Assembly: GCA_001779235.1 (NCBI GenBank)
Contig: MFJN01000034.1
Location: 11,202-55,530, forward strand
DNA from: Candidatus Gottesmanbacteria bacterium RIFCSPHIGHO2_02_FULL_40_13
GTDB lineage: Bacteria; Patescibacteriota; Microgenomatia; 2-02-FULL-39-11
Reading direction: 5' to 3'
Length of the DNA stretch: 44,329 bases
Part shown: positions 1 through 38,626 of the stretch, in pieces
How positions within the stretch are numbered: the stretch's first letter is position 1
How the letters are laid out: every line of letters starts with the position of its first letter
The notes under the pieces: model-generated
The model's input: only the letters and a program-made list of their open reading frames with translations
Told to the model about the DNA's origin: nothing
The model's database searches: none
Position numbers and translations under genes: made by a program

Positions 1-123
1 CCGATCAACCCCAAATATGTTTATGTCCAGTATACGGTCAGCCAGGCAGGAGAAGGCACAGGCCCCAAGGATACTTCATCCCTGGACTACCAGACAACCA
101 TATCTTTGAGGAATTACCAGTGA
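1..123 (+). CDS. 3' end of an upstream gene entering the window (partial, 40 aa: ...PINPKYVYVQYTVSQAGEGTGPKDTSSLDYQTTISLRNYQ*)
   Basis: Frame 1 is open from base 1 to TGA at 121-123. Too short to assign a family. Confidence 0.3.
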   Translation, partial: PINPKYVYVQYTVSQAGEGTGPKDTSSLDYQTTISLRNYQ

Positions 124-170
124 ATATTCTAATTTGATTTAATAGTCAAAGTATAATATACTATAGGCTT

Positions 171-3100
171 ATGCCTATAGAAACTGATGCAAGTTTTGGG
201 TTAAAGTCACTGGAAAACCGTGAGCGGAGATCTGAATTGGCAGATGCTATTTTAGCTGAGAAAGACCGCCTTTTAAAAATAGCAGGGCTAAATCAAAATT
301 ATCTGAATGAAGTTCAAAATATCGGGGAACAATACTCATTTTCAGACCCTCAAAAAATTTTAAACGCTGCAAATGAATTAGTTTCTGCTGTTAAAGCCTA
401 TGCGACGATTCACAATCCGAATAATTCCGAAAAGTATTTAGTCGGATTAAATGCAGCAGTTGTTGCCCTGGCTGAGATTCGGATCCTGGGTCCTGAAACC
501 CTATACAAATCTCAGCGGCAACAGCAAGCAGGAGAAGTTAGAAGGGTAGGAATCCAGAAAGAACAGGTGGAAGCCGCATTGGCAATCGAATCCATGGACT
601 CAGCGAAAGTACCAAGTTCGCAGGGTAAAAGCAATACCGCTATACCCATTGCCTCCGTCGTGCGGGCATTATTTACAGGAGAACAGGTTCATATCATGGT
701 GCGGGATCCTCAAGCAAAAAAAAGAGATTCGCAAAATATGAAGCTTCTGACAGAATCTTTAGGTATGAATTTGGGTGTCATAGAGCGGGGTGGAAATCAG
801 GACGAAAAATTATTAAAAAAACAAATTTCTGACCTGATTTTCATCCGGGATATTATCGATTATGCTTCCGGCATATCAGATCATCGAAAAAAGAAATTTA
901 AGGAATTTATCGCAGGACAAATTGACGACTCCGTAAAAAAGTTACATTTTCCCATGATTATTGAGGACGATAAATCACCGGTTGAGAAGGCAGATTCATC
1001 AAAACCGGCAGATATTATTATCGGTGATGACAAAGATTTTGTATTTTCATCAATGACAAGAGATAAAAGATTTATCCGGGAGAAAAGTAATGCAAGTATT
1101 ATTTGTGATGAAGGTGACCTTCCCTGGACTAAAGGCAGCCCCTATGAACTGGAAAATAGAGGCCTGTCTACACTTTCATCATATCTTCCGGAGTGGATTA
1201 CAAACAGCGTTGTTGACGAGGTCTGCCGGGAAATGCAGGATCAGGGGCAAATAATATTAAATAATCACAACGAGTTGGAGTTTGTAGACAGCCGGGGAGA
1301 GGAAACCCATGACATTTACGAGAGACGGTTAAGAAAAAGGCTTGGAGAGGTGACTAAATATGGAAATTTATCCCCGTCCAGCTTAAATGCACTAATAAGC
1401 AGTATAACAACAGAGTACTCCCGTATCATACAAAAGTTAGACGGTATCCCCTTTCCAAATGAGTTCAGGCTAAAGCCCGATAACCTTTTTAAGGATTCTG
1501 CGATGCGAAAACTGGTCAGAAATTTTGCGTATCAGGATGTATCAGCACCTTCAGCCATGCCTGAAGACACTAGTCTGGAGTCTCAAGACCCAATTGCTTT
1601 TTATGATTATGCGTGGTTCACCGCACAGAAGCTTACGCCCGGTATAAACTATTCCCGGTCTGATCAGGAAGTAGTCCTTATCGATCCGGAGACGGGACAT
1701 CCATTGCCCACCCATCAGTATTCCGGTTTGGTCGATATGGCGGTAGATGTGAAGGAAGGCGTATGCAGTTTTAGAGCCAGAAGCGACGAAGTTCTTGATA
1801 GAACAGATTTTCAGATGTTCCTTCAAACCAATTACGGTAAAGGGCACATATCCCTTGTTTCAGCAACACTCGACCATATAAGAGGTGAAGTAGAGGAATT
1901 TACAGGCGGAAAAGTGGCGGAAATCGGTTATTGGATTGGCCGGGAAATGCCGGTTTCTCAAATTGAAATTTCCGGGGATTTTGAAAAAGCTAAAAATAGA
2001 CTTCTCGTATTAGTTCAGGAAGCATCAACATCAGGCAGGCCTGTGGAAATTGTCTGTGACGATGATGAGGAGCTGGGAATTTTAAAACAAATTTTTGATG
2101 AATGGCTTAAAGATAATCCCGAATACCAAGTAAATATGGTTACTTCCAAAAGCAGTTTGGAGTCTGAAGATGAAATATTCGCTCACGCAGGACAATTAAA
2201 CACGATCACTCTTACCAATCCCAGAGGTGGAAGAATGGTGGATATCAAAACATCCCGAGAAACTAACGACGCAGGCGGATTACTGCTGGTTGTCTGGGGA
2301 GCCCTGAAAAATAAGGCGGTTTTACAGCAGGTATTAGCCAGGACAGCCCGAACCGGATCTCCGGGAGAAACACGCTGGATGGTTTATAAACATGGTGGAA
2401 AAGCTGCTCTGGAAAATAATCCCATCGTGAAAAGATATAGGAAACATTTAGATGCATTACAAACACTGCAGGATGGTCAGATGCTTGATTATGATTACAG
2501 CCTGCTGGAGAGTGTTCATGAGCGGAACAATCAGGACGACCGGTCCTTGAGGCTTTTAACCTATGCTTATGACGAAATGAGACAAGCTTTGTATACTGAT
2601 GCCCGTAAAAGCCTGAGGCAGGATATCGGAAGACTTGTGACCCAGGGATATATTGAGGAGTATATTCAGATGAGATGGCACGAGGTAATTGATTTTATAG
2701 CAGACTATTATATCTCACAAGTATCACGGTACAGGATGGATACTCTCGGAGATCTATCTGTAGCCAGAGGAACGGTATTAAGTGATACATATTTCAGAAA
2801 AATGCTGGATAAATATGCCAATACCTTATTAGTTGATTCACATAATTATTATATAAGAGATCCTAAAAGCGGTAAATTACGACCGGGATTTTTAAAACAT
2901 AAAATGCGTCTGGCTCCGGATATAGATACTTATTTACAATTTAAAGAAGAAGAAGAATATAGAAGTATGCTGCAAACGCACCATTTGGGCTTTTTGCCTC
3001 CTGTAAATCTTTTGGAACCCTTACGGGCCGGTTTATATTTCCCCCAAAGTCCGAATAAACTATATATCCTGACAAGATCAATAAATCTTTCTGTTGGCAG

Positions 3101-3305
3101 TCGGGCTAAAACAAGTCCTCACACCAGATACAGTCTGAGAGTTATGTCTTTTGATGACGAAGACCGGTTTGACGGAGACAAGGTGATCACTGTTGCGGAG
3201 AAAGACATCGAAGAATTGTTAAGTCAGGTTTTTTATACACAAAACATAATAAAACAAAAAGCCCTATTTCATGAACTTAGGGAGGCTCACCTGCTGCCTG
3301 CTTGA
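171..3305 (+). CDS. Highly divergent SecA-family (preprotein translocase motor-like) protein, 1044 aa
   Basis: ATG at 171, with TATAAT at 152-157. Collinear matches to SecA motifs as I recall them from E. coli. SSQGKSNTAIPIASVVRALFTGEQVHIMVRDPQAKKRD...LGMNLGVI matches [36 protein letters not shown]...LGLTVGI. KLHFPMIIEDD matches KLHYALVDEVD. DQEVVLIDPETGHPLPTHQYSGLVDMAVDVKEGV matches [34 protein letters not shown] (PPXD). TLTNPRGGRMVDI matches IATNMAGRGTDI. GGLLLVV...LARTARTGSPGETRWMV matches GGLHIIGTERH...LRGRSGRQGDAGSSRFYL. Confidence 0.65.
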   Translation: MPIETDASFGLKSLENRERRSELADAILAEKDRLLKIAGLNQNYLNEVQNIGEQYSFSDPQKILNAANELVSAVKAYATIHNPNNSEKYLVGLNAAVVALAEIRILGPETLYKSQRQQQAGEVRRVGIQKEQVEAALAIESMDSAKVPSSQGKSNTAIPIASVVRALFTGEQVHIMVRDPQAKKRDSQNMKLLTESLGMNLGVIERGGNQDEKLLKKQISDLIFIRDIIDYASGISDHRKKKFKEFIAGQIDDSVKKLHFPMIIEDDKSPVEKADSSKPADIIIGDDKDFVFSSMTRDKRFIREKSNASIICDEGDLPWTKGSPYELENRGLSTLSSYLPEWITNSVVDEVCREMQDQGQIILNNHNELEFVDSRGEETHDIYERRLRKRLGEVTKYGNLSPSSLNALISSITTEYSRIIQKLDGIPFPNEFRLKPDNLFKDSAMRKLVRNFAYQDVSAPSAMPEDTSLESQDPIAFYDYAWFTAQKLTPGINYSRSDQEVVLIDPETGHPLPTHQYSGLVDMAVDVKEGVCSFRARSDEVLDRTDFQMFLQTNYGKGHISLVSATLDHIRGEVEEFTGGKVAEIGYWIGREMPVSQIEISGDFEKAKNRLLVLVQEASTSGRPVEIVCDDDEELGILKQIFDEWLKDNPEYQVNMVTSKSSLESEDEIFAHAGQLNTITLTNPRGGRMVDIKTSRETNDAGGLLLVVWGALKNKAVLQQVLARTARTGSPGETRWMVYKHGGKAALENNPIVKRYRKHLDALQTLQDGQMLDYDYSLLESVHERNNQDDRSLRLLTYAYDEMRQALYTDARKSLRQDIGRLVTQGYIEEYIQMRWHEVIDFIADYYISQVSRYRMDTLGDLSVARGTVLSDTYFRKMLDKYANTLLVDSHNYYIRDPKSGKLRPGFLKHKMRLAPDIDTYLQFKEEEEYRSMLQTHHLGFLPPVNLLEPLRAGLYFPQSPNKLYILTRSINLSVGSRAKTSPHTRYSLRVMSFDDEDRFDGDKVITVAEKDIEELLSQVFYTQNIIKQKALFHELREAHLLPA

Positions 3306-3557
3306 ACTTACGGAAAAGGGGACGGTTCTCTTTTTATACGAGGTGCAACCTCGTTAAAAACCTCGTTTAAAAAAGCCAGAGAGCTAAAGGAAGCGATTGA
3401 GATGTTGATAAAACCTTACCGGTCTTGACAAAACTATAGGCGATGTTACGACATTAAAATGATGTCAAATCTATCAAGGGTAAACCCTAAAAGCGGATGT
3501 TTCTATATTGCAATAATAGGAAGTTATCATTTTGCACTAACAGGGGAAGACTCAGTC

Positions 3558-3586
3558 TTTACGTAAGACCTATAGCATGATATAAT
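3558..3586 (+). promoter_or_regulatory. Sigma70-like promoter directly abutting the ORF start (leaderless-type)
   Basis: -35 TTTACG (3558-3563), 17-nt spacer containing TG at 3578-3579, -10 TATAAT (3581-3586), then 6 nt (aaatca) and ATG at 3593. No Shine-Dalgarno. A near-palindrome gtctt-tacgt-aagac (3555-3569) overlaps the -35. Confidence 0.5.
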
Positions 3587-3592
3587 AAATCA

Positions 3593-6187
3593 ATGGTAGC
3601 AATTAATGCTATTGAAAACGGTACTACTGCACCAGGGTCTATAATAACAGATATTGCACGTAGTCCTATTGTTGGTTTGGAGGCCTCACATTCTGCTCCA
3701 AATCTAGTAGTTAATTCACACGCATACAATAGAGGAGACGGGTTAAATTCTCCTTTAAACCCCCAGGGAATTGTATTTGAAGGCTTTCAAACCCCGTATC
3801 AAGAAATGAGAAATGCCGCATCCGAAGTCTTACGGGATATGGGTATCAAACATAAAATAGAAAGAGAAGAAATGCTTCGAAGTTTTGATAGATTGCGCGA
3901 GGGAGACGAGAAAGCTGTTGAGGATTTTCAGGCAACGCTTAGCGATTTTCAGGACGGGGTTGTGGATCCGATACTAAAGGGATTGCACGAGGCCGTCAAA
4001 TTTGTAGATGAACAGGCTTTAAATATATTGACTGGGACAGAAATAGGTATAGGAGCGGCAATGGCTGGTTATTTAGCGGTAGATTATCTAAGACGAAGAC
4101 ATGATTTTTCTAGAGTTAAACGTGTGCTAAAACATGATGGGAGTAGAACTGGTTCTTTTCTAAAAGCTTTAGGTATATTAGCAGGATTTAGTGGAATTTT
4201 AGCAGGGTGTACGGGTTTGGTATGGGCTACAACAACTCTAACAGCAGAAGCTCCTCCGACTGCCTCATCTACTCTTCCACCTCCGCAGATAAAAGTAACA
4301 CATAATGCGCCACCTTCCGCCCCGCCTTCGGAGACCCCTTCACCCGTCCCTCCGGAAGATACGCCAATGCCTGAGACAGTAAACGAAGCATCGTATAACG
4401 CTCATGCTCTTTTGGATACCATCCCTGAAGAAAATCATATAGGAAACATTATTTCTAAAGAAAGTATGTCTAGACTTGCAGATGGAAGGGATACACTTAC
4501 CGGCTGGTCTCAAGATGCAGCAAAAGCAAAACTGGCAGAAATGCAGAGTGTTTTAGATAATTTAAATCCAGAATTGGTAAAAGATGAAGCAATTTTTGCA
4601 AAAACTGTATATCTAGTATTGTCAAAAGATGGTAAATATAATTTTATAATTCTGGTAAACGATACAGTTCCAGAGGGAACTATTGCGGGAGATACGTTGT
4701 GGCATTCAGCAACCATGGATGATACTGGTAAAGTAATATTTAGTTTCCAACCAAATGCCAACATGGGTCTTGGTGTTAATAGATTTGGTAATTGGGTTGG
4801 GCCCGGGGGGATAGATGGTAAGGAAACATTTCTTAAGGCAGTTGATCTGACTCCTGTGGGAGGCATCCAAGGACTGCTTGATGGCCGCGGAAGGATTGTT
4901 TTCGATGGTAACGGAATCGCCTATATTGTGGCGCTAAATAAAGATGGACAGGTAACGCAGGTATTTGATGCAGCATCAGGCAGCTGGCTGCCGTCAGAGA
5001 TAGTATTTGTCCCTGAGCCGGTGGCAACTCTCACCAATGAGCAGATTGTTTCCATGGATGATGGGCAAATATTACAGCAAGCGCCACAATTAAATTCAAC
5101 GGAATATCAATTTGATACAGAATTTCCTCTGGTTGCGGATGAGGTGATAAGAGGCGGTGAAGGGGCAAATTACGTGGTTTATAAAGATGAAACAGGCAAT
5201 TACCACCTGGTCTGGAATATAGAGACAGGTGAGGTAAATCACGCGATTTATGCCCCAGCCTATGAAGGTGAAATTGGAGGGGAAGTCCATAAGGGAATAC
5301 CGCTTCTGGTGCTTACAGACAATTCAGTTCTTAAGCCGGAAAACGGCGGGGGCTGGTTTGGTTTAAATCCCGATTACACAGACGCGCAAGCCCGCATAGC
5401 CGAAGCATTTCAGATAGCCTTGGGCATGAGGTATTGGGATTCTAAAATAAAACCGGCCGATAATTTCCCATTTAGCCACGGATTACCGGATTTCAAAGAC
5501 GTCCCCGGTTATGAGACTTTAAAGCAGGAATTAGAGAGATATTTTTCTCCTCCAAATCATGCACCTATACCGCATGAAACTCCAAAATATTTGAGAGTCA
5601 AAATTGCAAATTATTTGAGAGATAAATTTTTGCTGGATTTAAAAACAGCCAAAGAAGAAGGTATGCCTTTTCTAGTCCGCATGAAGGATAAGGGCAGAAC
5701 ATACGCGGATCTGGCAGGTATAAATACCTTTATCATTGATTTTACCGACAGCGGGAAGATGACCTTTCTAGGCGATAACCAGAGAAGGTCTGAAAGTTTG
5801 CTTGCTTATAACAAAATAAGCTACTATTTTATTAGTGCACTAACAGCACCTGGCAGTTTCAGATTAACAGTTGATAATTGGAAATATGACTATAATACCA
5901 ACAGATGGTTTGGCGGTGAGTTTTTAGCTTTACTCAGGTATGCTTTCGCAGGTCAGTATTATGCTGCAGGTGGATATGAACTCGGTCGAAAGTGGGTTCA
6001 AGAATCAAGCAGTGATTTTACACATCAAATCGCAGCCGAAATGCTCTCGGATAAGGTCGTTGCAGATAATCCTGAATTAGCGGAAATATTAGATGATTAT
6101 GCCTTAAGTTACCCGTTTTTATGGTGGGTAGGATACCCGCCTGACTGGTTTACCAACAGCTCGGCAGTACAATTTGTGAAGCCGTAA
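3593..6187 (+). CDS. Large membrane-anchored protein of unknown family (864 aa): about 190-aa N-terminal cytoplasmic part, TM, Pro-rich stalk, about 600-aa ectodomain
   Basis: Long ORF. Strongly hydrophobic segment FLKALGILAGFSGILAGCTGLVWATTTL, followed by APPTASSTLPPPQIKVTHNAPPSAPPSETPSPVPPEDTPMPE. I recognise no catalytic motif. Confidence 0.8.
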   Translation: MVAINAIENGTTAPGSIITDIARSPIVGLEASHSAPNLVVNSHAYNRGDGLNSPLNPQGIVFEGFQTPYQEMRNAASEVLRDMGIKHKIEREEMLRSFDRLREGDEKAVEDFQATLSDFQDGVVDPILKGLHEAVKFVDEQALNILTGTEIGIGAAMAGYLAVDYLRRRHDFSRVKRVLKHDGSRTGSFLKALGILAGFSGILAGCTGLVWATTTLTAEAPPTASSTLPPPQIKVTHNAPPSAPPSETPSPVPPEDTPMPETVNEASYNAHALLDTIPEENHIGNIISKESMSRLADGRDTLTGWSQDAAKAKLAEMQSVLDNLNPELVKDEAIFAKTVYLVLSKDGKYNFIILVNDTVPEGTIAGDTLWHSATMDDTGKVIFSFQPNANMGLGVNRFGNWVGPGGIDGKETFLKAVDLTPVGGIQGLLDGRGRIVFDGNGIAYIVALNKDGQVTQVFDAASGSWLPSEIVFVPEPVATLTNEQIVSMDDGQILQQAPQLNSTEYQFDTEFPLVADEVIRGGEGANYVVYKDETGNYHLVWNIETGEVNHAIYAPAYEGEIGGEVHKGIPLLVLTDNSVLKPENGGGWFGLNPDYTDAQARIAEAFQIALGMRYWDSKIKPADNFPFSHGLPDFKDVPGYETLKQELERYFSPPNHAPIPHETPKYLRVKIANYLRDKFLLDLKTAKEEGMPFLVRMKDKGRTYADLAGINTFIIDFTDSGKMTFLGDNQRRSESLLAYNKISYYFISALTAPGSFRLTVDNWKYDYNTNRWFGGEFLALLRYAFAGQYYAAGGYELGRKWVQESSSDFTHQIAAEMLSDKVVADNPELAEILDDYALSYPFLWWVGYPPDWFTNSSAVQFVKP

Positions 6188-6254
6188 TCGTAAACAAGCT
6201 GGAAAAAGATCCCCCGAATTTAGCCCAAAAAATACTGTAACAGTCTAGCCTCAA

Positions 6255-6316
6255 GAAGTATTGTCATCGCGAGGGATGTACCGGAGAAGTATTGTCATCG
6301 CGAGGGATGTACCGGA
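6255..6316 (+). repeat. Perfect tandem duplication of a 31-bp unit (gaagtattgtcatcgcgagggatgtaccgga x2) ending in a hairpin-forming element
   Basis: Unit 1 at 6255-6285 is identical to unit 2 at 6286-6316. Copy 2 continues into the inverted repeat cgcgagggatgtaccg / cggtacgtcctgtggcg (to about 6334). It shares the motif tgtcatYgcgagg with the element at 34862-34880 on the opposite strand. Confidence 0.9.
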
Positions 6317-6359
6317 CGGTACGTCCTGTGGCGATCCCGTTGGATTTTACTCCTTCATC

Positions 6360-6388
6360 TTGACCTCACCTTTAAAATATGGTTTCAT
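6360..6388 (+). promoter_or_regulatory. Promoter abutting ORF 6395 (leaderless-type)
   Basis: -35 TTGACC (6360-6365), 17-nt spacer ending in TGg, weak -10 TTTCAT (6383-6388), 6 nt (agtaat), then ATG at 6395. Confidence 0.4.
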
Positions 6389-6394
6389 AGTAAT

Positions 6395-6922
6395 ATGAGA
6401 CGAAAATCGGCAATAATCTTTGCCTTCATGCTTCTGGTCACCTCAATACTTGCGTATTTTTATTTTAGGGGAACCTGGTCGAACTGTACTATATCAGTGA
6501 AGTCGGATAAAAATGCACCATATGTAAAGATTGCAGACCGGGATAAATGGCTGGATTTTATAGGCAAATTGGCAGAGTGCCAGGACGGATTTTATCAGGC
6601 ATACAGTGAAAAAGAGCACCTGTTTATTCCGGTCAGGCGTGTAGAGTTTGCGATAGTAAAAGATAGCCAGACAGTGACTTTGAAAGATGCTAGCGGAGCG
6701 CTGTACAGCCGGACTATCGCCATCGACAGGGCGAAAAAACAGGCTGTGGTTTACATCAATATACCTGCGTCTGACCTGGAAAAGTTTAAAAAATATCTGC
6801 ATACAGCCGTATTTCTGAATGCTTACCTGTTATTTCGGGGAAATCCCTATAATACCTACGAGCCTGCGTTAGCGCCATATAAGGATCTGGATGCGCTCGG
6901 CATCTCATATGAAAAGCCGTAA
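6395..6922 (+). CDS. Small N-terminally membrane-anchored/secreted protein, unknown family (175 aa)
   Basis: ATG start. N-terminal MRRKSAIIFAFMLLVTSILAYFYF hydrophobic segment. Its stop (6920-6922) overlaps the next gene's ATG (6909) by 14 nt, suggesting an operon. Confidence 0.7.
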   Translation: MRRKSAIIFAFMLLVTSILAYFYFRGTWSNCTISVKSDKNAPYVKIADRDKWLDFIGKLAECQDGFYQAYSEKEHLFIPVRRVEFAIVKDSQTVTLKDASGALYSRTIAIDRAKKQAVVYINIPASDLEKFKKYLHTAVFLNAYLLFRGNPYNTYEPALAPYKDLDALGISYEKP

Positions 6923-9900
6923 ACCGATACAGGTTTTATTGTTAATTTCAATTTTTATCAGTCTGGGTTTGATTTTTTTGCTAAATCCGCCAAAAACTTC
7001 TGCTCAATCCTGCGGAGGGTATTGGAACTGCTGTATTGGGGGGCTTTGCTGCGATCCGCCTCAATGTACAAGTTATACATGCCATAGTGATTTTCAAGAC
7101 TCCTGTTCAGGAACCACTCAATCCGCATGCGAAGATACCGGTAGCAACAGCTACCCTGACTGTTCTGAGAACGGATACAGTCGATGCGATAATGACCCTA
7201 GCTACGAGCCTGGCGGAGGGCCTGGGTGTACGTGGGATCCTGGTGGGGGTGGTGGCGCTACGAATACTCCAGCAGGCGCCTGGTGTACCGGCGGACATGA
7301 AGATTGTGTTGGCGGAGATCCTGGTGATTCTTGCGGGAACGGCGGCACCTGTCAGGACAATAACAGCGATCACAATTGCGGTTGTGCCGGTGAAACCGTC
7401 CCTACTGATACTCCCACCCCAACACCTACACCTATCTGCCCCTCTATTGGTTCTGTCTCTCCTTCTTCTATTACCAGTGGTACCACTGTTGATATTGCAG
7501 TTACTTACACCGATTTATCAGGCGGGTCAAATATAGATCGGGGTTACCTTGGTTTTAACGGCTGTACCCTGGACCCGGGGGAAGCCTACAACAGCAATTT
7601 TGAGCGGGAACTTGCTAATTATATGGGTATGTTCTATGCTGCCTCAGCAAACTGGGGTGGGGTGGGAACCAATGGAACTGGAGGAGCCTGTTCGCTAGGC
7701 AGCTATGGTGATGACCCCTGGGGATATTTCGGCGGAACAACTATTGGATTTGATAACGCAAATAGCAATTTAACTGTCAATACTGTTTCTACATCAGTTT
7801 CCGGTAATAATCGCACATTCACCTGGAATGTAACTTTGCAAAATAATTTTCCCGCAGGTTCTTATAGTTATTATGGTATGGTTCGGGATGCAGATAATAA
7901 CTACCAAGGTTGCGGTGGAGCCAGATGGACGAAACTTAACTCTCTTCAGGTTATTACTCCCACTCCTACCATTACCCCCACTCGTACACCTACCCCCACC
8001 CGTACCCCTACTCCAACCATTACTCTCACCCCTACTCCAACCATTACTCTCACCCCCACCCGTACGCCTACTCCTTATGTGAATGCTTACTTCAGAAATT
8101 CTGCGGGTTTAACTGTCACTGCCAATGCAGGAGCATATTTCTGGAATGGGGGAAATCGTGTAGATCCCCAATTTAACATATCCGAATATCTTCATCACGC
8201 GAACTATTCTTGGCATACAGAAAAAGGTGTTGGTGTGGATCCGGCAGGAAGTGATATAGTAATTGGTATTACTCCGTCACCTTTAACAGGTACATTGTCC
8301 AATTATACTAATGGAAGTGAATATTGGTGGAGATATCTGTGGCCGTCCTGGAATACCGCAGAACATTCTATTACCTTTATCATTGCATCCCCAACTCCTA
8401 CTCCTACCCCCACCCGTACCCCTACTCCAACCATTACTCCCACCCCTACTCCAACCATTACTCTAACCCCTACAGTTACTCCAACCGTTACTCCCACTCC
8501 CACCCTGACCCCGACCCCGACTTTTTATAATCTTTACGGCTGGATTTATACGGAAACAAACAACGCGGTCGTCAGAAGTGAGGAAGCTTCGGAAGGATTG
8601 CTTCCCGGTTATACCGTGGATCTGACAGGCGACGAAGAGCGTACAACTATCTCACAAGGCTCACCGATTGCCGGATTTCTGGCTAATTACATCTTTACTC
8701 CTCTTTATAATGGTACTTATGAGGTTCAGATGCCTATAACTCCAACCGATTCAGTGCTTTTCCCGAGATATACAAATCCTAAAATAGCGATTATAGCCGG
8801 TGGAGATGTTATTGCTGACTTTCCTTTTATCACGATTACGCCATACCTGAGTCCTACCTCCACGCCTACCGCCACGCCTACTTCTACTCCGCCTCCAATC
8901 ACCCCTACTCCTACTTCTTTATGGTCACCGACCCCGACTGTCGGGTCCGGAACCCCTACTCCTACTTCATATCCATGCCAGACACTGCCTACACCTATTC
9001 TGAACGCACCTTCGCATCTTTTATGTACCAATATCAAACCGGCTTTTTCAGCCTATGTATCAAATCCCAATAACGATAATGTCTGGGCACATTTCTACAG
9101 CAATTATTATGAAACATTCAGCAGAACAGGATCGGTAGTAAGCCCCTCCGGAGGAAATAGTATCTGGACGCCGGACGGATCTGTGCTGAACACTACCGGA
9201 GGCTACTGGTGGACGGCTTATACGGAAAGTTCTTCCTGTCCGCGCTCATTTGATGCCCCCGCCAACCTGCTGAATATGGATTATACTCCTCCGCCCAAGC
9301 CCCAGGCTCCCGTCTGTACTATTACTGACCCGAATTTATATTCCGGCCTATGCGCATTGCATTGTGAATGGGAGGCTGATCCGGAGCCGGTTCCTCCTAC
9401 ACCGACTCCTCCTTCCTGCAGTGATACCGGTGATTATCACCCTATTTTCAGATCTTACGGAGGTCCGGGAGTTGTAGATCCTCCAGGCTGGATCGGAAAT
9501 GTATTATTTGTGGATGTTGAGGCTGAGGCTGGGCAGGAATTGTATGCGAGTGTGGAGGCCAGGGACGGCCTTGGCAACACATCATTGCCTTCAGATGAGG
9601 CCGGCCCGTATACGTGTGAGGAAATCATCTTTCCCGTATCTCCTACTCCCGGCGGACCGACCCTGACCCCCACCGGTAGCCCTCCGCCGACAGCTACTCT
9701 CACACCGTCAATCACGCCTGTCCCGTCTCCGGAAATCTGGTCGCAGGTTTTCGGCGGAGACGTCTATGAACCATCACTTCTGCAAAGTAATCTTCCCTCA
9801 GGAAAATATTATTTAGATGACATATCACTTTTATTCCCTAATAGCGCCGGAGTGCTGTGGTCGGGTTCCGGCGCAGGTGATTTCGGATACGGTACCTCTT

Positions 9901-10454
9901 CGCCGACGAATTGGCAGGTAGCGTCCACTCTTTCCAACGCTTTCAACTTTTCCTATTACTGGGAATCTTTGAAAAACAATCCTGATGTTGTTACTGTACC
10001 AAATACAACCACTATTCCTTCTTCTGATATAGTCGCAGACAAATCTATATATTATTATAATCAGGCGTTGATATCTTTGAATTCAAATCTTACTTTAATG
10101 CCGTCGGGTAATGTGGCAATATTCTTAATCTCAGGTTCACTGAATATTAAAAATAATTTTACAGTTACCCCGGACGAGTCAGTAGTGTTTGTGGTGAACG
10201 GTAATATTGAGGTGGACAGCAATGTGACCCGTGTCGACGGACTTTTTATCGACAGCGGAACATTTTCAGTTGCAACCGGCCCGGATCCGCTTGTCATCAA
10301 CGGAATGGTTTATACCGGGGAGATGAGTTTAAACAGGACTTACAAAAGTTTTTCCGCACCAACCTATAAATTTATCTACCAGCCGAAATACGTGATAGCA
10401 TTATTGCCGTATCTTGGCAGGCCGCAGATTAATTGGCAGGAGGGAGGACCATGA
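6909..10454 (+). CDS. Giant secreted surface protein: signal peptide, 18-Cys N-terminal module, several domains separated by (T/P)n linkers, C-terminal about 330-aa domain
   Basis: MKSRKPIQVLLLISIFISLGLIFLLNPPKTSAQ looks like a signal peptide. An alternative ATG lies at 6891. There are 18 Cys within about 130 aa (SCGGYWNCCIGGLCCDPPQC...NCGCAGE). TPTPT-type linkers are encoded at about 7950-8080, 8390-8520, 8860-8960 and 9640-9730. The stop TGA (10452-10454) overlaps the ATG of the PilX-like gene (ATGA). Confidence 0.85.
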   Translation: MKSRKPIQVLLLISIFISLGLIFLLNPPKTSAQSCGGYWNCCIGGLCCDPPQCTSYTCHSDFQDSCSGTTQSACEDTGSNSYPDCSENGYSRCDNDPSYEPGGGPGCTWDPGGGGGATNTPAGAWCTGGHEDCVGGDPGDSCGNGGTCQDNNSDHNCGCAGETVPTDTPTPTPTPICPSIGSVSPSSITSGTTVDIAVTYTDLSGGSNIDRGYLGFNGCTLDPGEAYNSNFERELANYMGMFYAASANWGGVGTNGTGGACSLGSYGDDPWGYFGGTTIGFDNANSNLTVNTVSTSVSGNNRTFTWNVTLQNNFPAGSYSYYGMVRDADNNYQGCGGARWTKLNSLQVITPTPTITPTRTPTPTRTPTPTITLTPTPTITLTPTRTPTPYVNAYFRNSAGLTVTANAGAYFWNGGNRVDPQFNISEYLHHANYSWHTEKGVGVDPAGSDIVIGITPSPLTGTLSNYTNGSEYWWRYLWPSWNTAEHSITFIIASPTPTPTPTRTPTPTITPTPTPTITLTPTVTPTVTPTPTLTPTPTFYNLYGWIYTETNNAVVRSEEASEGLLPGYTVDLTGDEERTTISQGSPIAGFLANYIFTPLYNGTYEVQMPITPTDSVLFPRYTNPKIAIIAGGDVIADFPFITITPYLSPTSTPTATPTSTPPPITPTPTSLWSPTPTVGSGTPTPTSYPCQTLPTPILNAPSHLLCTNIKPAFSAYVSNPNNDNVWAHFYSNYYETFSRTGSVVSPSGGNSIWTPDGSVLNTTGGYWWTAYTESSSCPRSFDAPANLLNMDYTPPPKPQAPVCTITDPNLYSGLCALHCEWEADPEPVPPTPTPPSCSDTGDYHPIFRSYGGPGVVDPPGWIGNVLFVDVEAEAGQELYASVEARDGLGNTSLPSDEAGPYTCEEIIFPVSPTPGGPTLTPTGSPPPTATLTPSITPVPSPEIWSQVFGGDVYEPSLLQSNLPSGKYYLDDISLLFPNSAGVLWSGSGAGDFGYGTSSPTNWQVASTLSNAFNFSYYWESLKNNPDVVTVPNTTTIPSSDIVADKSIYYYNQALISLNSNLTLMPSGNVAIFLISGSLNIKNNFTVTPDESVVFVVNGNIEVDSNVTRVDGLFIDSGTFSVATGPDPLVINGMVYTGEMSLNRTYKSFSAPTYKFIYQPKYVIALLPYLGRPQINWQEGGP
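7993..8056 (+). repeat. 64-bp direct repeat, copy A (linker-coding), 62/64 identical to copy B
   Basis: cccccacccgtacccctactccaaccattactctcacccctactccaaccattactctcacccc. It contains an internal tandem of acccctactccaaccattactct. Confidence 0.9.
8407..8470 (+). repeat. 64-bp direct repeat, copy B
   Basis: Differs from copy A at two positions only. The offset of 414 bp (138 codons) keeps it in frame. Confidence 0.9.
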
Positions 10455-11365
10455 TTATGAAAATCCAAATTACTCCGCCAAAGGCGGATCAGCCTCTGGC
10501 TGAAAATTTCAAATTCCAAATAAACAGGAAGAATTATATAACCCGCGATAAATCAGCAGGTCAAATAGTATTGATACTGGTTCTAATTACCGTAGTTGGT
10601 TTGACTATCGGATTATCCCTGATTTCCAGGTCGGTGACCGACGTCAGAATATCATCGCAGATTGAAGAATCAAGCAGGGCCTTTTCAGCGGCAGAGGCAG
10701 GTGTGGAAAATGCCTTAAAGATCATTAATGTATTCCCGACTGACACGCCTCAATCCATCACCCTGGATAATGCTTCAGCAGAATACACAGTTTCCGATAT
10801 AGGAGGCAGCAACAGTCTTTACTCCTTCCCTGCGACCGAAGCCAATTCATCACAGATCCTCTGGCTGGTGAATCATGATTCTGACGGAGGCTTGGGTATA
10901 GCCTATTATTCTAAAACAGATTCACTGGATATTTGCTGGGGTATAGCCGGAAATAATGCAGCTATTGAGTTTAGCCTTTATTATAAAACCGGCTCAACAT
11001 ATAAAATCGCCAAGTCTGCTTATGATCCGGATATTTCCCGCGCCGGCAATAATAAATTTAACCCGGCTGATACAGATGGTAGTTACTGCGAAAGTATTTA
11101 TCCGTATAAACATACGATCAACTTTATTACTGATTTTGGAGTTTCGGAGGCTGATAATTTATTGGCTCTGCGAATGACACCGGTTTATGAGAATACTGCA
11201 ATAGGCGTCAAACCCACTGAGAATTTGCCCGTCCAGGGAAATCAAATAAATTCCGTGGGTAAAACCACTACGGGGGTAGTACGAAAAATTCAGGTGAACA
11301 AGACTTACAGTATCTTGCCGGGGTTATTGGACTTCGCTTTGTATTGCGAATCCAACTGCCAGTAA
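10451..11365 (+). CDS. PilX-like type IV pilus-associated protein (PilX_N-type N-terminus)
   Basis: GGAGG at 10444-10448. ATG at 10451 (ATGA overlap with the upstream stop) or at 10457; the ORF-track start 10433 is TTG. The TM helix GQIVLILVLITVVGLTIGLSLI followed by SRAFSAAEAGVENAL is typical of the PilX N-terminal domain. There is no G/FTLxE prepilin cleavage motif. Confidence 0.6.
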   Translation: MIMKIQITPPKADQPLAENFKFQINRKNYITRDKSAGQIVLILVLITVVGLTIGLSLISRSVTDVRISSQIEESSRAFSAAEAGVENALKIINVFPTDTPQSITLDNASAEYTVSDIGGSNSLYSFPATEANSSQILWLVNHDSDGGLGIAYYSKTDSLDICWGIAGNNAAIEFSLYYKTGSTYKIAKSAYDPDISRAGNNKFNPADTDGSYCESIYPYKHTINFITDFGVSEADNLLALRMTPVYENTAIGVKPTENLPVQGNQINSVGKTTTGVVRKIQVNKTYSILPGLLDFALYCESNCQ

Positions 11366-11455
11366 TATCATAAATATGAAACGTAAAAAACGCTTGACAA
11401 AAAGGCATAGATTTTCTAAGGTTAGTTATATGAATAAACCTCTTTATTAACCCCA

Positions 11456-11484
11456 TTGACAATTGTTTGCCGGATTAAGATACT
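11456..11484 (+). promoter_or_regulatory. Candidate pilM promoter
   Basis: TTGACA (11456-11461), 17 nt, GATACT (11479-11484). A second TTGACA (11394-11399) with 17 nt and TAAGGT (11417-11422) lies upstream. I cannot choose between them. Confidence 0.3.
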
Positions 11485-11512
11485 TAGTATATAAACTTAT
11501 TTTTACAATGGA

Positions 11513-12541
11513 ATGAGTAATATTTTAATTGGACTGGATATAGGGTCCAGTTCGATCAAAGCTGCCCAAATATCCAAAGACAAGGCCATTTCCACCCTGC
11601 TGGCGGCAGGTTATATTGCCACTCCGGTTAGGGACGTGACCAGTATGAATGAGCATGATGAGCAGGAACTGGCAAACAGCATCAACCATCTGGTTCATGA
11701 TATGAAAGTTTCCAACATTAATGTGTCTGCGTCGCTCCCCTCTTCCAAAGTTATCACCCGGATAGTGGAGATGCCCCTAATGGATGATAAGGAGCTTGCC
11801 TCAAGCATACAATGGGAAGCAGAGCAGTATATACCTTTTCCTTTAACCAAGGTGAAACTGGATTATGCCGTGGTAAGTGCTAATATTCAGACGAAAAAGA
11901 TGAATGTTCTGCTGGTTGCAGCTCAGATAAGCCTGATTGAGTCTTATATGCGTATTATTACGCTGGCAGGTCTAAATCCTATCGCGCTGGAAACTGAAAT
12001 CATGGCCATTGGCAGAAGCGTTGGTTTCAGTCTGCCTACCGTGTCTGATGTTTTGATTGTCTCTATAGGTGCAAATGCCACCGATATTGCTCTAATGCAT
12101 GACATGGTCTTAAGTTTTACAAAATCGTACCCGATTGGCGGAAATAATATGTCCCAGGCGATAGCTGAAGAGTTGGGGTTTGAGATTGCCCAGGCAGAAG
12201 AATATAAAAAAACTTACGGATTGGAGGAACATAAGCTTGAAGGAAAAATTGCCAAAATTATCTCGCCTTACATCAATAATCTTATTGAGGAGATGGAGAA
12301 AATAGTTGCCTTTTACAAAAAAACATTTGCGAGTTCGGAAATTTCGACGGTAGTCATCTCAGGAGCGGCCTCAAAACTGCCGGGATTGGTTCTGACAATC
12401 ACCAAAAATTTAGGCCTTGATTCCCAGTTGAGCAATCCTTTCATCAATTTAAGCGTTGATCCAAAAATTCTGCCTAAATTGACGGAAGAAGCGCCGTTAT
12501 ATACGACTTCCATCGGCCTTGCTTTAAAGGAAACAGATTAA
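11513..12541 (+). CDS. pilM: Type IV pilus assembly protein PilM (actin-like ATPase fold)
   Basis: GLDIGSSSIKAAQI N-terminus, SIGANATDIAL, ISGAASKLPGL. Size about 340 aa. Followed by PilN- and PilO-like genes. Confidence 0.9.
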   Translation: MSNILIGLDIGSSSIKAAQISKDKAISTLLAAGYIATPVRDVTSMNEHDEQELANSINHLVHDMKVSNINVSASLPSSKVITRIVEMPLMDDKELASSIQWEAEQYIPFPLTKVKLDYAVVSANIQTKKMNVLLVAAQISLIESYMRIITLAGLNPIALETEIMAIGRSVGFSLPTVSDVLIVSIGANATDIALMHDMVLSFTKSYPIGGNNMSQAIAEELGFEIAQAEEYKKTYGLEEHKLEGKIAKIISPYINNLIEEMEKIVAFYKKTFASSEISTVVISGAASKLPGLVLTITKNLGLDSQLSNPFINLSVDPKILPKLTEEAPLYTTSIGLALKETD

Positions 12542-12545
12542 TAAT

Positions 12546-13118
12546 ATGGTCAAAAAAAGTATCAATTTACTGATCGAGAAAGAATTGGATTCACTGCTGG
12601 TTGCCAAATTAAAACACTACCTGCCTGTTGCCGCAGCTGTCTGTTTTATACTTTTTATCATCCTTTTTATAGTATCGATCACCATTACGAAGAAAAATCT
12701 GGCCCAATATAATACTCTTAAAGAAGAGGTAAACAAAATCGAAAATAAAATAGATGAAAAGCAAAATCTTGAGGGAGTTTATACTCTCAGCTACAGCATT
12801 TTAAAAATCATAAATGAGATTACCGGTAATAAAGTAAATTTTACCCCGCTGCTCGCTTCGGTTATAAAAATAAACTCAGATGACCTGTCATTAACCAAGG
12901 CTATGTCTGATGACAAAGGCCTGGTAAATTTCAGCATCAGCGCTTCGTCATCGGCAGCCCTCAATAATTTGGTTTCTTTTCTTCATGAAAGGGAAGATAA
13001 GGATAAAATATTTTCCGCCATTTATGCCCACCGTGCCACCAGAAATACAGACGGAGGATATCAGATATCTGTTTCTTTCAAAGCAGACGAGTCGCTTTAT
13101 CATGAAAAAACCAATTAA
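12546..13118 (+). CDS. pilN: PilN-like pilus assembly protein
   Basis: N-terminal SINLL motif (the PilM-binding INLLP-like motif), a single TM, a coiled-coil region, and its position after pilM. Confidence 0.7.
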   Translation: MVKKSINLLIEKELDSLLVAKLKHYLPVAAAVCFILFIILFIVSITITKKNLAQYNTLKEEVNKIENKIDEKQNLEGVYTLSYSILKIINEITGNKVNFTPLLASVIKINSDDLSLTKAMSDDKGLVNFSISASSSAALNNLVSFLHEREDKDKIFSAIYAHRATRNTDGGYQISVSFKADESLYHEKTN

Positions 13119-13830
13119 TTATTATCTTTATAAGTTAAAAAAATATGAAATTATCGGAGTTTCATCTTTGGTTATTTTATCAGTTCTGGCTTTATCATAT
13201 TATTTTCTCCTGCCGAATCTCCGTAAAGCGCAGGAAATATTTTCCCAGCAAAAACAGTTGAGGGCGCGTTTGACCATTCTGCGGAAAAAAGATGAACTGC
13301 TGTCCACGATCGACAGTAAAGTTTATCAGGAAAATATCAATAAACTGACCGGTATTTTACCCGGATCGAAAGATTATGTTTCTTTATTTAATACATTTGA
13401 CAACCTGCAGATTGAGAGCGGTGTGACCATTCTGAAAACTGATCTTCAGCTGGGAAGCATATCCACGCAGTCTGGCAAGTTGAAGAAAGATACTCTATCA
13501 TCAGCCTTCATCATACCTGTAAAAATTGATATTATCGGAAATATTGACCAGATAAATAACTTTATCAATTCTCTGGCTGATTTAACAAACCGGATTATCA
13601 CCGTGAATAACATTTCCTGGGGCAGCAGTGCAGACGGCTTATATAAGGTATCACTTGACGGCAACAGTTATTTCTATCCCCTGCCGTCAAAAATCGGCGG
13701 TATCGATTCACCACTCGTGGAAATCAATGAAAAACAGCAAAAAATTCTGGATACAATCGCCGCAATACCGGCCCAAAGAGTTGATGAGAGTGAGTTTGTC
13801 CCGCTCGGCAAGCCAAATTTATTTAACTAA
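13102..13830 (+). CDS. pilO: PilO-like pilus assembly protein
   Basis: ATG at 13102 (MKKPINYY...). TM IIGVSSLVILSVLALSYYFLL plus a coiled coil. The ORF-track 5' extension to 12985 overlaps pilN and is unlikely. Overlaps the pilN stop by 17 nt. Confidence 0.6.
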   Translation: MKKPINYYLYKLKKYEIIGVSSLVILSVLALSYYFLLPNLRKAQEIFSQQKQLRARLTILRKKDELLSTIDSKVYQENINKLTGILPGSKDYVSLFNTFDNLQIESGVTILKTDLQLGSISTQSGKLKKDTLSSAFIIPVKIDIIGNIDQINNFINSLADLTNRIITVNNISWGSSADGLYKVSLDGNSYFYPLPSKIGGIDSPLVEINEKQQKILDTIAAIPAQRVDESEFVPLGKPNLFN

Positions 13831-14472
13831 TCGGTGCGCCTTTTTCCAAAGGTTAATCTCCTGATGATTGCCTGACAGGAGCACGGAAGGTACTTTATAT
13901 TTATTATAGACTTTTGGCCTGGTATATTGCGGATCTTCGAAAAAATTATCTTCAGAATAGGATTCGTTAATAAGCGAGTCTTTATTCAAAACTCCTTTTA
14001 CTAATCGGCAAACAGCATCGCAGACTACCATGGCAGGAATCTCTCCCCCTGTTAAAATATAATTGCCTATGGATAAAGATTCATCAACAAAATGTTTGAT
14101 GCGTTCGTCAAATCCTTCATAATGGCCGGAGATGAGAATCAGGTGATCAAGGCGTGTGTACTTGCGGGCAAGAGCTTGCGTAAATTGCTTGCCTTTGGGA
14201 TCCAGTAAGATTTTTTTTTCCCTGATTTTAAATTCCTTGTTCTTAAGACTGACAGCTTTGATAGCCCTGTGTAAAATATCCACTCTCATTAACATCCCGG
14301 CCCCGCCTCCGTACGGTTTTCCGTCTACTGATTTGTATTTATCCTCAGCAAAATTTCTGATATCGACATACCTGATGTCTATCAGTTTTTTATGCCTTGC
14401 CCGTCCGATAATGGAAAGATCAAATATGGGGTGAAATACCGGGGGAAATAAAGTCAAAATTGTTATTTTCAC
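13819..14472 (-). CDS. trmD: tRNA (guanine37-N1)-methyltransferase TrmD
   Basis: KITILTLFPPVF..., YGGGAGMLM, ISGHYEGFDERI, SIGNYILTGGE. The likely start is GTG at 14472; the track start 14523 is TTG with a non-homologous extension. The 3' end overlaps convergent pilO by 12 nt. Confidence 0.93.
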   Translation of the reverse strand: MKITILTLFPPVFHPIFDLSIIGRARHKKLIDIRYVDIRNFAEDKYKSVDGKPYGGGAGMLMRVDILHRAIKAVSLKNKEFKIREKKILLDPKGKQFTQALARKYTRLDHLILISGHYEGFDERIKHFVDESLSIGNYILTGGEIPAMVVCDAVCRLVKGVLNKDSLINESYSEDNFFEDPQYTRPKVYNKYKVPSVLLSGNHQEINLWKKAHRLVK

Positions 14473-28427: not shown

Positions 28428-28442
28428 ATGATTATTAGAAGT

Positions 28443-29273
28443 TTAAGGAATTGATTCATTAATGTTTTTTAAAGCTTGTTCCATTATTCTAACCGGAGGG
28501 TCGATTCCGGTGAACATTTTAAATTTTAACACAGCCTGCCAAAAAAGCATTCTTTCTCCATATACTAATTTACTTTGCATTTCTTTAGCGTTTACTAATA
28601 ATTTAGTTTCTTTAGGATTAGTAACAAGATCCATGACAGTTAAGTCTGAGCGCAATAAACCTTTTGGAACAAGTGATTGATTTTCATTCGGCTTCATTCC
28701 GACTGATGTAGCATTGATTAAAATTTCTGCTTGTTCAATTTCTTGAGCAAGAGATTGTATAGAATTACTTCTGGCATTTATTTTTCTGGTAATTTGTTTG
28801 GCGAGGTCTGCATTTCTATTTAGAATAATTAAATTTCCGCCTTCATCCGTCACCGCAATGGCGATTGCCCGGGCTGCCCCGCCGGCACCCAGTAATAATA
28901 CATTTTTATTTTTTATAACGGTTACTTCGTTTAACGCTTTGACACAACCTAATCCGTCGGTATTGCCACCGCTTAATTTACCGTTGTCATTAACTATGAC
29001 GTTTACCGCACCAATTATTTGAGCATTTTCGTCAAGTTCATCAAGATATTTTATTGCCTCGATTTTATACGGAATAGTGACACCCACCCCTTTTATTCCC
29101 AGTTGGCGAATTCCCTCAATTGCCTTTTTCAGATCTTTTACCGCAAAAGGAACATAGACATAATTGAGTTGTAAAGCTTTAAAAGCAGCATTGTATAAAG
29201 TAAACATTTTGCTTGTTTTGTATGTTGAACCGAAAAACCCGATTATTTTTGTTTCTCCGTTTATTTTCATCAT
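28443..29273 (-). CDS. aroE: Shikimate dehydrogenase
   Basis: GVTIPYK, NTDGLG, LLGAGGAARAIA (NADP Rossmann). Confidence 0.92.
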   Translation of the reverse strand: MMKINGETKIIGFFGSTYKTSKMFTLYNAAFKALQLNYVYVPFAVKDLKKAIEGIRQLGIKGVGVTIPYKIEAIKYLDELDENAQIIGAVNVIVNDNGKLSGGNTDGLGCVKALNEVTVIKNKNVLLLGAGGAARAIAIAVTDEGGNLIILNRNADLAKQITRKINARSNSIQSLAQEIEQAEILINATSVGMKPNENQSLVPKGLLRSDLTVMDLVTNPKETKLLVNAKEMQSKLVYGERMLFWQAVLKFKMFTGIDPPVRIMEQALKNINESIP

Positions 29274-29311
29274 TATAATTTTACTTCATTACTATATATT
29301 AATGTAGTAAA

Positions 29312-29848: not shown

Positions 29849-29856
29849 ATTTCTAA

Positions 29857-31152: not shown

Positions 31153-31153
31153 A

Positions 31154-38414: not shown

Positions 38415-38421
38415 GTCGTTG

Positions 38422-38493: not shown

Positions 38494-38543
38494 GTCTTAC
38501 CAGCTCATTTCACAGTTTATCATTATAAGGCGATTTGTTCCAA

Positions 38544-38572: not shown

Positions 38573-38626
38573 AAGAGCTCGCTCCTAAATAACGTTTACG
38601 ATTATTTAGGATTGCAGCTCTGTTTA

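Follow-up and report, generated by a model that had tools for sequence, protein, structure and literature searches.

Accessory export systems built around a SecA paralog include the SecA2-only systems of Mycobacterium, Listeria, Clostridioides difficile, and Bacillus anthracis and the accessory Sec (aSec) systems of streptococci and staphylococci, in which SecA2, SecY2, and Asp1-3 occur with serine-rich-repeat adhesins. To our knowledge, cargo-dedicated SecA paralogs have so far been found only in a few Gram-positive and mycobacterial pathogens. Bacteria of the Candidate Phyla Radiation (CPR) are thought to depend on surface structures for host attachment. Among the SecA2-only systems, C. difficile SecA2 exports surface Cwp/S-layer proteins including SlpA (PMC7503281), and M. 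smegmatis SecA2 exports lipoproteins (PMC7503281 and its reference 16). Here we describe a SecA-like gene and its neighbours in a 44,329-nt stretch of DNA (the window) from Candidatus Gottesmanbacteria, a CPR bacterium (contig MFJN01000034.1), beyond which the same-strain contigs L001 and L002 run further upstream. The loci of relatives are coded L001–L019, with L001–L003 representing three independent assemblies of the window's strain. Eight co-directional genes on the + strand occupy positions 171–13830 of the window, and their coordinates, together with the ORF3/ORF4 and ORF4/ORF5 overlaps described in an initial annotation of this DNA, are confirmed by the listing of open reading frames (ORFs). 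The first gene, ORF1 (171–3305, +), encodes a 1044-aa SecA-like ATPase, termed SecAL, recognised by remote matches to SecA profiles and structures, by its motifs, and by its predicted fold. The second, ORF2 (3593–6187, +), encodes an 864-aa N-extended lipobox protein, recognised by the ORF listing, its architecture, and the alignment of a Cys residue. We give about an even chance to the reading that SecAL is a "SecA2-only"-like accessory motor dedicated to this adjacent N-extended lipoprotein, which would be exported via the housekeeping SecYEG channel. A separate and much more divergent SecA-derived family, with a positionally conserved partner, is thereby recognised in uncultivated CPR bacteria.

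SecAL is a remote relative of SecA

The product of ORF1 was initially annotated as SecA-like, and matches in NCBIfam, the PDB, hhalign, and Foldseek identify it as a genuine though remote SecA relative. Searches with profile hidden Markov models (HMMs) give 22.8 bits against Pfam SecA_DEAD (PF07517, cutoff 24.6), 38.6 bits against TIGR00963 (cutoff 800), and E=4e-16 against NCBIfam SecA, yet only 58.3 bits against a cutoff of 862 (PRK09200). The scores also fall below the cutoffs of all four SecA2 clade models compared (TIGR03714, TIGR04221, TIGR04397, and NF012136), with 53.5 bits vs 930, 36.8 vs 725, 42 vs 1085, and 41.9 vs 1100. Among PDB sequences, C. difficile SecA2 (6t4h, E=1.4e-12) is the closest match, with SecA and SecA2 entries ranging from 1e-12 to 1e-9, and the hhalign comparison with canonical SecA gives a probability of 96.6% over the C-terminal part of nucleotide-binding domain 1 (NBD1) and NBD2. 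The sequence is ∼15% identical to any SecA or SecA2. No match to PF01043 (PPXD), PF07516 (SecA_SW), or PF02810 (SEC-C) was found for ORF1 in Pfam, in the same search in which the canonical SecAs P0006 and P0007 carry them, and the helical wing domain (HWD) region is not recognisable by sequence.

The catalytic residues of the motor are retained. Walker A G152-K153, Walker B D313-E314, motif III T566, motif V R688, and motif VI Q720/R724 are invariant in 13 SecAL family members, down to 24% identity, and in 22 canonical SecAs, and because of this invariance the SecAL motor looks catalytically competent. The first P-loop Gly of Walker A (G152-K153-S154) is replaced, giving VPSSQGKS, and Walker B reads D313-E314-G-D316.

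The predicted structure points in the same direction. An AlphaFold2 (AF2) model built from a 35-sequence alignment including canonical SecAs has a predicted local distance difference test score (pLDDT) of 86.1 and a predicted template-modelling score (pTM) of 0.85, and it replaces an earlier run on five close homologues that was not usable (pLDDT 53, pTM 0.35). In a Foldseek search of the PDB, the top 36 matches of this model are all SecA or SecA2 (E 4e-22 to 1e-8), with alignments spanning ∼950 columns, and the next-best fold class, XPD/DinG, appears at ∼1e-7. The best target-normalised TM-score among full-length SecA chains is 0.62, obtained with the substrate-engaged SecA-SecY complex 5eul, a value slightly exceeded only by the isolated motor-domain entries 3bxz (0.65). 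Relative to SecA, the protein carries a 45-aa N-terminal extension and a ∼60-aa helical insertion in NBD1, and its PPXD-equivalent (∼aa 329–540) is remodelled and enlarged, with the bulk of it (∼329–488) mostly helical in the model. The PPXD-stem motif (INYS..VVLID.ETGHPL...Y.GL..A..VKEG) is kept and aligns at SecAL 489–535, the long scaffold helix is predicted at 778–819, and the C-terminus (∼aa 890–1044) forms a novel beta-rich domain and lacks the zinc-binding C-terminal tail.

Size and distribution of the SecAL family

An exhaustive HMMER scan of 1.84 billion representative proteins recovered 11 SecAL proteins at E≤1e-30, and the family amounts to ∼12 clusters at 50% identity. Full-length members are 925–1126 aa long and score at least 222 bits, compared with at most 87 bits for canonical SecAs. 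A homology search with a 13-member alignment of the family returned no further members, a narrower alignment found only a duplicate of L019 in JGI metagenomes, and a scan of GTDB genomes yielded a single locus. The three members from named lineages (P0001, P0008, and P0158) all belong to Candidatus Gottesmanbacteria, and one metagenome-assembled genome labelled Gammaproteobacteria is syntenic with the other loci and encodes a SecAL that is 60% identical. The ORF1 sequence is identical to that of a protein annotated as "hypothetical" in Candidatus Gottesmanbacteria RIFCSPHIGHO2_02_FULL_4x. Judged by sequence, SecAL is a small, previously unnamed family of SecA paralogs, and the database labels of its members ("hypothetical" or "SecA family profile domain-containing") are corrected by this analysis.

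The rarity of the family argues for accessory status, and it bears directly on the alternative that ORF1 is the divergent housekeeping SecA of the organism. ORF1 is the sole SecA-like gene in the 44-kb window and CPR proteins are often divergent, both of which would suit such a role, but an essential gene in so widespread a lineage should be represented by far more than ∼12 clusters. Bacteria otherwise conserve canonical SecA well, and ORF1 lacks the three Pfam domains that P0006 and P0007 show. Because the family is so rare, this alternative is strongly disfavoured, and we regard it as extremely improbable.

ORF2 encodes a proposed partner with an N-extended, lipoprotein-like architecture

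The protein encoded by ORF2 begins with a conserved extension (aa 1–166) that is predicted to be cytoplasmic, and its one strong hydrophobic segment (aa 189–210) lies after a ∼188-aa N-terminal region. After the extension, a weakly hydrophobic stretch precedes the basic loop RRRHDFSRVKRVLKHDGSR; the h-region FLKALGILAGFSGI with the lipobox LAGC comes next, and then a Thr/Pro-rich linker, which leads into an ectodomain of ∼600 aa without known domains. Cys206 (codon 4208–4210), which ends the lipobox, is the sole Cys among the 864 residues. The segment thus has the basic n-region, the h-region, and the lipobox ([LVI][ASTVI][GAS]C) of a lipoprotein signal, but it does not lie within the extreme N-terminus (usually ∼20–30 aa) and begins at ∼aa 167, behind the conserved in-frame extension. 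No Pfam or NCBIfam match was found for ORF2, ORF3, or most of ORF4, and PDB sequence searches with ORF2 and ORF4 returned only low-complexity or insignificant matches.

The same arrangement recurs among the relatives. The N-terminal domain is 55–60% identical in L006, L007, and L008, compared with 25–39% for the ectodomain, and the extension of ORF2-type proteins measures 65–200 aa across lineages. A Cys closes the hydrophobic segment in seven lineages, with the Cys columns aligning, and no other Cys occurs in the available sequence of five of the seven (the window, L006, L015, L019, and the partial L013). Canonical lipoboxes are present in the window and L006 (LAGC in both), L011 (LAAC), and L015 (VASC). 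It is very unlikely that chance would place a sole Cys in a slot of ∼6 residues across several unrelated-looking proteins of 650–860 aa, and the segment is therefore read as a lipoprotein-type signal sequence, internal owing to the long, predicted cytoplasmic N-terminal extension.

The conservation of the extension also admits a different arrangement, in which SecAL and ORF2 form a stable trans-membrane complex. The ORF2 N-terminal domain would dock the ATPase, and either hydrolysis would be relayed outward or SecAL would handle other cargo, for example ORF4, with ORF2 as its receptor. The extension is the best-conserved part of ORF2 and in all lineages shares the reading frame of the membrane segment, and a SecAL with a remodelled PPXD and C-terminus, in which no two-helix-finger motif was found, would suit such a docking role. 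However, ORF2 has just one clear membrane-spanning segment, and a sole Cys ending the h-region and followed by a Thr/Pro linker is the signature of a cleaved, lipidated signal peptide rather than of a permanent anchor. All SecA relatives known to us are translocation motors, which also counts against a stable complex, and we consider it rather unlikely.

ORF1 and ORF2 are separated by a gap of 287 nt that holds a match to a sigma-70-like promoter consensus (TTTACG-17-TATAAT with TG; 3558–3586, +), the best such match in positions 1–14000. Because this match stops 7 nt short of the ORF2 ATG, which lacks a Shine-Dalgarno motif, the ORF2 mRNA may be leaderless.

Conservation of the neighbourhood among relatives

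An ORF2 homologue or an architecture-equivalent gene adjoins SecAL in 9 of 11 distinct loci spanning 25–72% identity. The partner deviates in one of the remaining loci (L016), the other (L014) is too short to tell, and L009 and L012, which have no usable flank, were left out of this count. In the window, L006, L007, L008, and L019, the gene after SecAL is a sequence homologue of ORF2, and an architecture-equivalent gene lies divergent from or downstream of SecAL in L010, L011, L013, and L015. For example, L006 (SecAL 60% identical) contains pilD, seven pilins, AbiEii on the opposite strand, SecAL, a 765-aa ORF2 homologue, and glycosyltransferases, with neither ORF3–ORF5 nor pilMNO next to the SecAL and ORF2 homologues. 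L007 and L008 contain pilins, SecAL, and a partial ORF2 homologue, and in L007 the SecAL and ORF2 genes overlap by 4 nt. Similarly, L019 (Gottesmanbacteria, SecAL 38%) contains pilD, seven pilins, a 6.5-kb Wzy/glycosyltransferase insertion, SecAL, a 771-aa ORF2 homologue, and glycosyltransferases.

More distant loci keep the arrangement in other forms. In L010 (SecAL 29%), SecAL is divergent from an operon encoding a 692-aa ORF2-like protein, a 209-aa N-anchored protein, and a 575-aa protein with a Cys-rich region, TP linkers, and a DUF7305 domain, and no pil genes were found in ∼8.5 kb upstream and 10 kb downstream. The ORF2-like gene is divergent from SecAL in L011 and L015 and follows it in L013. 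In L016–L018 (SecAL 25%), SecAL is followed by genes for a 607-aa protein, a 208-aa N-anchored protein, and a protein with a signal peptide and a Cys-rich region, a four-gene order equal to that of the window. No pil genes were found within the few kb of the short contigs L015 and L016. Of the five loci with sufficient sequence to judge, three (the window, L010, and L016), from three deep lineages, contain genes resembling ORF3 and ORF4, which follow ORF2 in the window. The initial annotation had grouped the SecA-like motor, the giant surface proteins, and PilX/PilMNO into one candidate export neighbourhood; gene order across relatives upholds the adjacency of the SecA-like and ORF2-type genes and the recurrence of ORF3-like and ORF4-like genes, and does not extend to PilX/PilMNO.

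This conservation also weighs on the alternative that there is no functional linkage and that the SecA-like gene is a decaying or neofunctionalised superfamily 2 (SF2) ATPase merely located near surface-protein genes. In favour of this alternative, all curated SecA cutoffs are missed widely (58 bits vs 862), and the 287-nt gap with its promoter-like site parts ORF1 from ORF2. Against this, the catalytic motifs are invariant down to 24% identity, SecAL is under strong purifying conservation within its clade, its fold match is specific to SecA, and the same kind of neighbour is kept across deep divergence, in one case with the 4-nt overlap of L007. We therefore regard a lack of linkage as very improbable.

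Genes downstream of ORF2

Three further genes separate ORF2 from the pil genes of the window. The ORF2–ORF3 intergenic region contains a perfect tandem duplication (6254–6315, +), two copies of the 31-nt unit AGAAGTATTGTCATCGCGAGGGATGTACCGG, followed by the near-palindrome GGATGTACCG-GA-CGGTACGTCC, and these are found in all three independent assemblies (L001–L003). ORF3 (6395–6922, +) encodes a small, N-terminally anchored membrane protein of 175 aa, or 164 aa from the start chosen by gene callers; its positional counterparts in L010 (209 aa) and L016 (208 aa) show no BLAST similarity to it.

ORF4 (6891–10454, +) encodes a Cys/TP-rich giant secreted protein of 1187 aa (ATG 6891) or 1181 aa (ATG 6909), and from the start at 6909 it overlaps the ORF3 stop (6920–6922) by 14 nt. 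Its N-terminus is a classical Sec signal peptide (...PKTSA|QS) followed by a Cys-rich module, and several domains joined by TP-repeat linkers lead to a C-terminal DUF7305-type domain that ends ...INWQEGGP. The DUF7305 score is 18.9 bits for ORF4 and 28 bits for the 575-aa protein of L010, to which the ORF4 C-terminus is homologous (E=1e-15). Clustered at 90% identity, the DUF7305-type family comprises at least 97 clusters, which come from Gottesmanbacteria, Microgenomates, and Chloroflexi and consist for the most part of proteins of 230–460 aa. It is far commoner than SecAL, and most ORF4-type proteins therefore do not need SecAL. Standard Sec signal peptides on the large proteins, named in the initial annotation, together with independent export, as grounds against its model, are represented by that of ORF4; the signal-like segment of ORF2 is internal and of the lipobox type. 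Fusion to PilX_N did not prove to be a usual feature of DUF7305-type proteins, with PF14341 found in none of 97 homologues, and the literature search found no paper mentioning DUF7305.

Most full-length DUF7305-type sequences inspected (including ORF4 at 10431–10454, L010 at 3905–3930, and P0161–P0254) end in W-(Q/E)-E-x-x-P, for example INWQEGGP, VSWQEVAP, and SEWEELAP, and this C-terminal motif may be a sorting or processing tag. ORF2 (...VQFVKP) and ORF3 (...SYEKP) are likewise Pro-terminated. In addition, ORF4 is 1187 aa long in the window and L003 and 1199 aa long in L001 (16721–20320), an assembly of the same strain from another sample, and one possibility is that the difference comes from a repeat-length polymorphism of the TP linkers.

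ORF5 (10451–11365, +) encodes a PilX_N-like protein of 304 aa with an N-terminal hydrophobic helix, which matches PilX_N (PF14341) at 19.7 bits, below the cutoff of 25.5 (E=8e-4). Behind a GGAGGGAGG motif, the ORF5 start codon (10451) and the ORF4 TGA share the overlap ATGA, an arrangement consistent with translational coupling of the two genes.

Type IV pilus genes in and beside the window

The remaining genes of the co-directional series are pilM (11513–12541, +), which encodes the type IV pilus assembly ATPase-fold protein (TIGR01175, 195.6 bits vs a cutoff of 133; PF11104, E=8e-56), a pilN-like gene (12546–13118, +), and pilO (13102–13830, +), which encodes 242 aa from the gene callers' start, with the longest ORF starting at 12985 (PF04350, 32 bits vs a cutoff of 22). 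The pilN-like gene has no PilN HMM match in Pfam or NCBIfam, and its assignment reflects its position between pilM and pilO and the architecture of its product, a bitopic protein with a coiled-coil region. Directly upstream of the window start, L001 5670–9953 contains pilD (peptidase A24) and seven consecutive prepilin-like genes, the products of which carry class III signals (G|FTL(I/V)E), for example RGFTLLELILV and NGFTLVELLVV, and in the longer same-strain contigs L001 and L002 the last prepilin gene ends 48 nt before ORF1. The initial statement that pilin, PilB/C/T/D, SecY2, and Asp genes are missing is thus accurate within the window, but it lists pilins and PilD as missing because the window edge hid the upstream pilus block. 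In relatives the junction between the pilins and SecAL is an insertion hotspot, holding an AbiEii toxin gene in L006 (8914–9630, −) and a 6.5-kb Wzy/glycosyltransferase cluster with a PBECR2-like gene in L019 (3455–9908).

These genes raise the alternative that the SecA-like motor belongs to the type IV pilus apparatus, or is coupled to it, and exports the giant adhesins (ORF2 and ORF4) displayed with PilX and PilMNO. In the window's strain the module sits between pilD with seven prepilins on one side and the PilX-like gene with pilMNO on the other, in L006, L007, L008, and L019 SecAL likewise has pilD and pilins upstream of it, and the ATGA overlap of ORF4 and ORF5 looks translationally coupled. 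However, L006 and L019 lack ORF4, PilX, and pilMNO beside SecAL and the ORF2 homologue and have glycosyltransferases there instead, and the insertions described above part the pilins from SecAL in both loci. Furthermore, no pil genes were found in the flanks covered at L010 (∼8.5 kb upstream and 10 kb downstream) or in the few kb of L015 and L016, and the PilX_N match of ORF5 is below the cutoff. In the loci compared, pil genes near SecAL are confined to the Gottesmanbacteria clade, and PilX/pilMNO accompany it in the window's strain alone. The coupling of the SecA-like motor to PilX/PilMNO proposed initially is not supported by these comparisons, and we consider a pilus-coupled motor quite improbable. 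The apparent link to type IV pili thus resolves into synteny within one clade, and the pil genes look like lineage-specific synteny outside the conserved core. No paper describing a SecA-like gene in CPR pilus clusters, or a SecA-like ATPase as a type IV pilus component, was found in the literature searches.

Proposed mechanism

The mechanism favoured here, that of a SecA2-only-like motor dedicated to ORF2, starts from homology, motif conservation, predicted fold, and conserved adjacency, which are directly supported, and we infer ATPase activity, an export role, lipidation, and the use of SecYEG. SecAL would recognise the N-terminal extension of ORF2, or its atypical internal signal, through the remodelled PPXD or C-terminal regions and would drive post-translational export of the large ORF2 ectodomain through the housekeeping SecYEG, as SecA2-only systems do. 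The ORF2 Cys would then be lipidated, and the N-terminal part would be either cleaved off or retained as an anchor. ORF3 and the DUF7305-type ORF4 would be frequent accessory cargo, partners, or helpers. The long conserved extension before a lipoprotein-type signal provides a concrete hypothesis for substrate choice by a paralogous Sec motor.

A number of observations weigh against this mechanism. On the side of the motor, a canonical secA was not seen within the ∼58 kb of genome covered, the canonical SecAs in the AF2 alignment may bias the SecAL model toward the SecA fold, and the SecY-contacting two-helix-finger motif (LRxGIxLRxYxQxDPLxEY) is not recognisable in SecAL in a MAFFT alignment that is unreliable in the C-terminal third. 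On the side of the partner, three of the seven lipobox-like motifs are non-canonical (the near-lipoboxes TTAC in L010, GLAC in L019, and MFAC in L013), the 607-aa partner in L016 lacks a hydrophobic segment, and an internal ATG (M157, at 4061) with AGGAG 6 nt upstream could give ORF2 an ordinary if long lipoprotein signal peptide. The ORF2-like proteins of distant clades are without demonstrable homology (BLAST negative; hhalign E=0.037, probability 1.4%), and the claim is therefore limited to a common architecture and position. Finally, the signal peptide of ORF4 is a normal one, and most members of its domain family occur in the absence of SecAL (at least 97 clusters vs ∼12).

A bolder form of the proposal is that substrate-dedicated SecA motors include a third class that evolved independently, the "SecA3" of the CPR represented by SecAL, with specificity residing in a cytoplasmic pro-domain of the cargo before the lipoprotein signal. 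The pro-domain would be recognised via the remodelled PPXD or the C-terminal beta domain, the ∼600-aa ectodomain would be threaded through SecYEG, and the pro-domain would be left behind after Lsp cleavage. We advance this form only tentatively, with the balance of probability leaning against it. If true, it would be a new principle for the targeting of large surface lipoproteins, possibly one that equips the surface of an episymbiont next to its pili.

Other genes of the window

The remainder of the window contains housekeeping genes, including tRNA synthetases, RecG, a penicillin-binding protein (PBP), a shikimate operon, initiation factor 3 (IF3), and trigger factor. The shikimate operon (26023–34763, −) is apparently a near-complete operon for shikimate and phenylalanine biosynthesis and encodes DAHP synthase, DHQ synthase, shikimate dehydrogenase, EPSP synthase, chorismate synthase, prephenate dehydratase, and an aminotransferase. 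Such an operon is notable in a CPR genome, given the limited biosynthetic capacity usual in this group. In addition, a 505-aa ORF without a Pfam match (38486–40003, +) adjoins a gene for a DUF5660 protein (39987–40574, −), and its 5′ end (38486) overlaps tRNA-Val (38421–38493, −).

Comparison with known systems

Canonical SecA and SecAL share the DEAD-motor NBD1 and NBD2 with all catalytic motifs, the PPXD-stem motif, a long scaffold helix (predicted in SecAL), and the global fold. SecAL differs in scoring far below the canonical cutoffs, in its N-terminal extension, its NBD1 insertion, and the replacement of the PPXD bulk, in having no HWD/two-helix finger recognisable by sequence and no zinc-binding tail, and in being rare and not universal.

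The aSec systems of Firmicutes, to which the locus was initially likened, resemble it in that a SecA paralog lies beside a very large repeat- or linker-rich surface protein and in that the cargo has an atypically extended N-terminal targeting region. However, their defining features are absent from the stretches examined. No SecY2, Asp1-3, or GtfA/B was found in the window or in the ∼10-kb flanks of relatives (L001, L006, L010, and L019), and the cargo is neither serine-rich nor LPXTG-anchored, with Thr/Pro-rich rather than Ser-rich linkers and no LPXTG motif in ORF2 or ORF4. Because no SecY2 or Asp is present in the examined flanks, SecAL is likened to the SecA2-only systems, which by analogy appear to be closer than the SecA2-SecY2-Asp systems.

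The SecA2-only systems share with the SecAL locus a SecA paralog without a dedicated SecY2 nearby, presumed to use the housekeeping channel, and a narrow set of substrates, surface proteins or lipoproteins, as proposed here for SecAL; the best PDB match of SecAL is likewise a SecA2 from such a system, that of C. difficile (6t4h). In contrast, SecAL is only ∼15% identical to these proteins and fails the SecA2 HMMs, its PPXD is enlarged and unrecognisable, its C-terminus is novel and beta-rich, and the finger motif was not detected in it. Its partner carries a 65–200-aa extension before the lipoprotein-type signal, and SecAL is found in the CPR. The type IV pilus clusters of CPR and monoderm bacteria are matched by PilM, PilO, and the PilN-like and PilX_N-like proteins in the window and by pilD and seven prepilins upstream, but the SecAL module differs from them in occurring without nearby pil genes in distant lineages. 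SecAL is classified here as a paralogous, proposed substrate-dedicated SecA motor with an unusual cargo architecture and a lineage-specific type IV pilus association.

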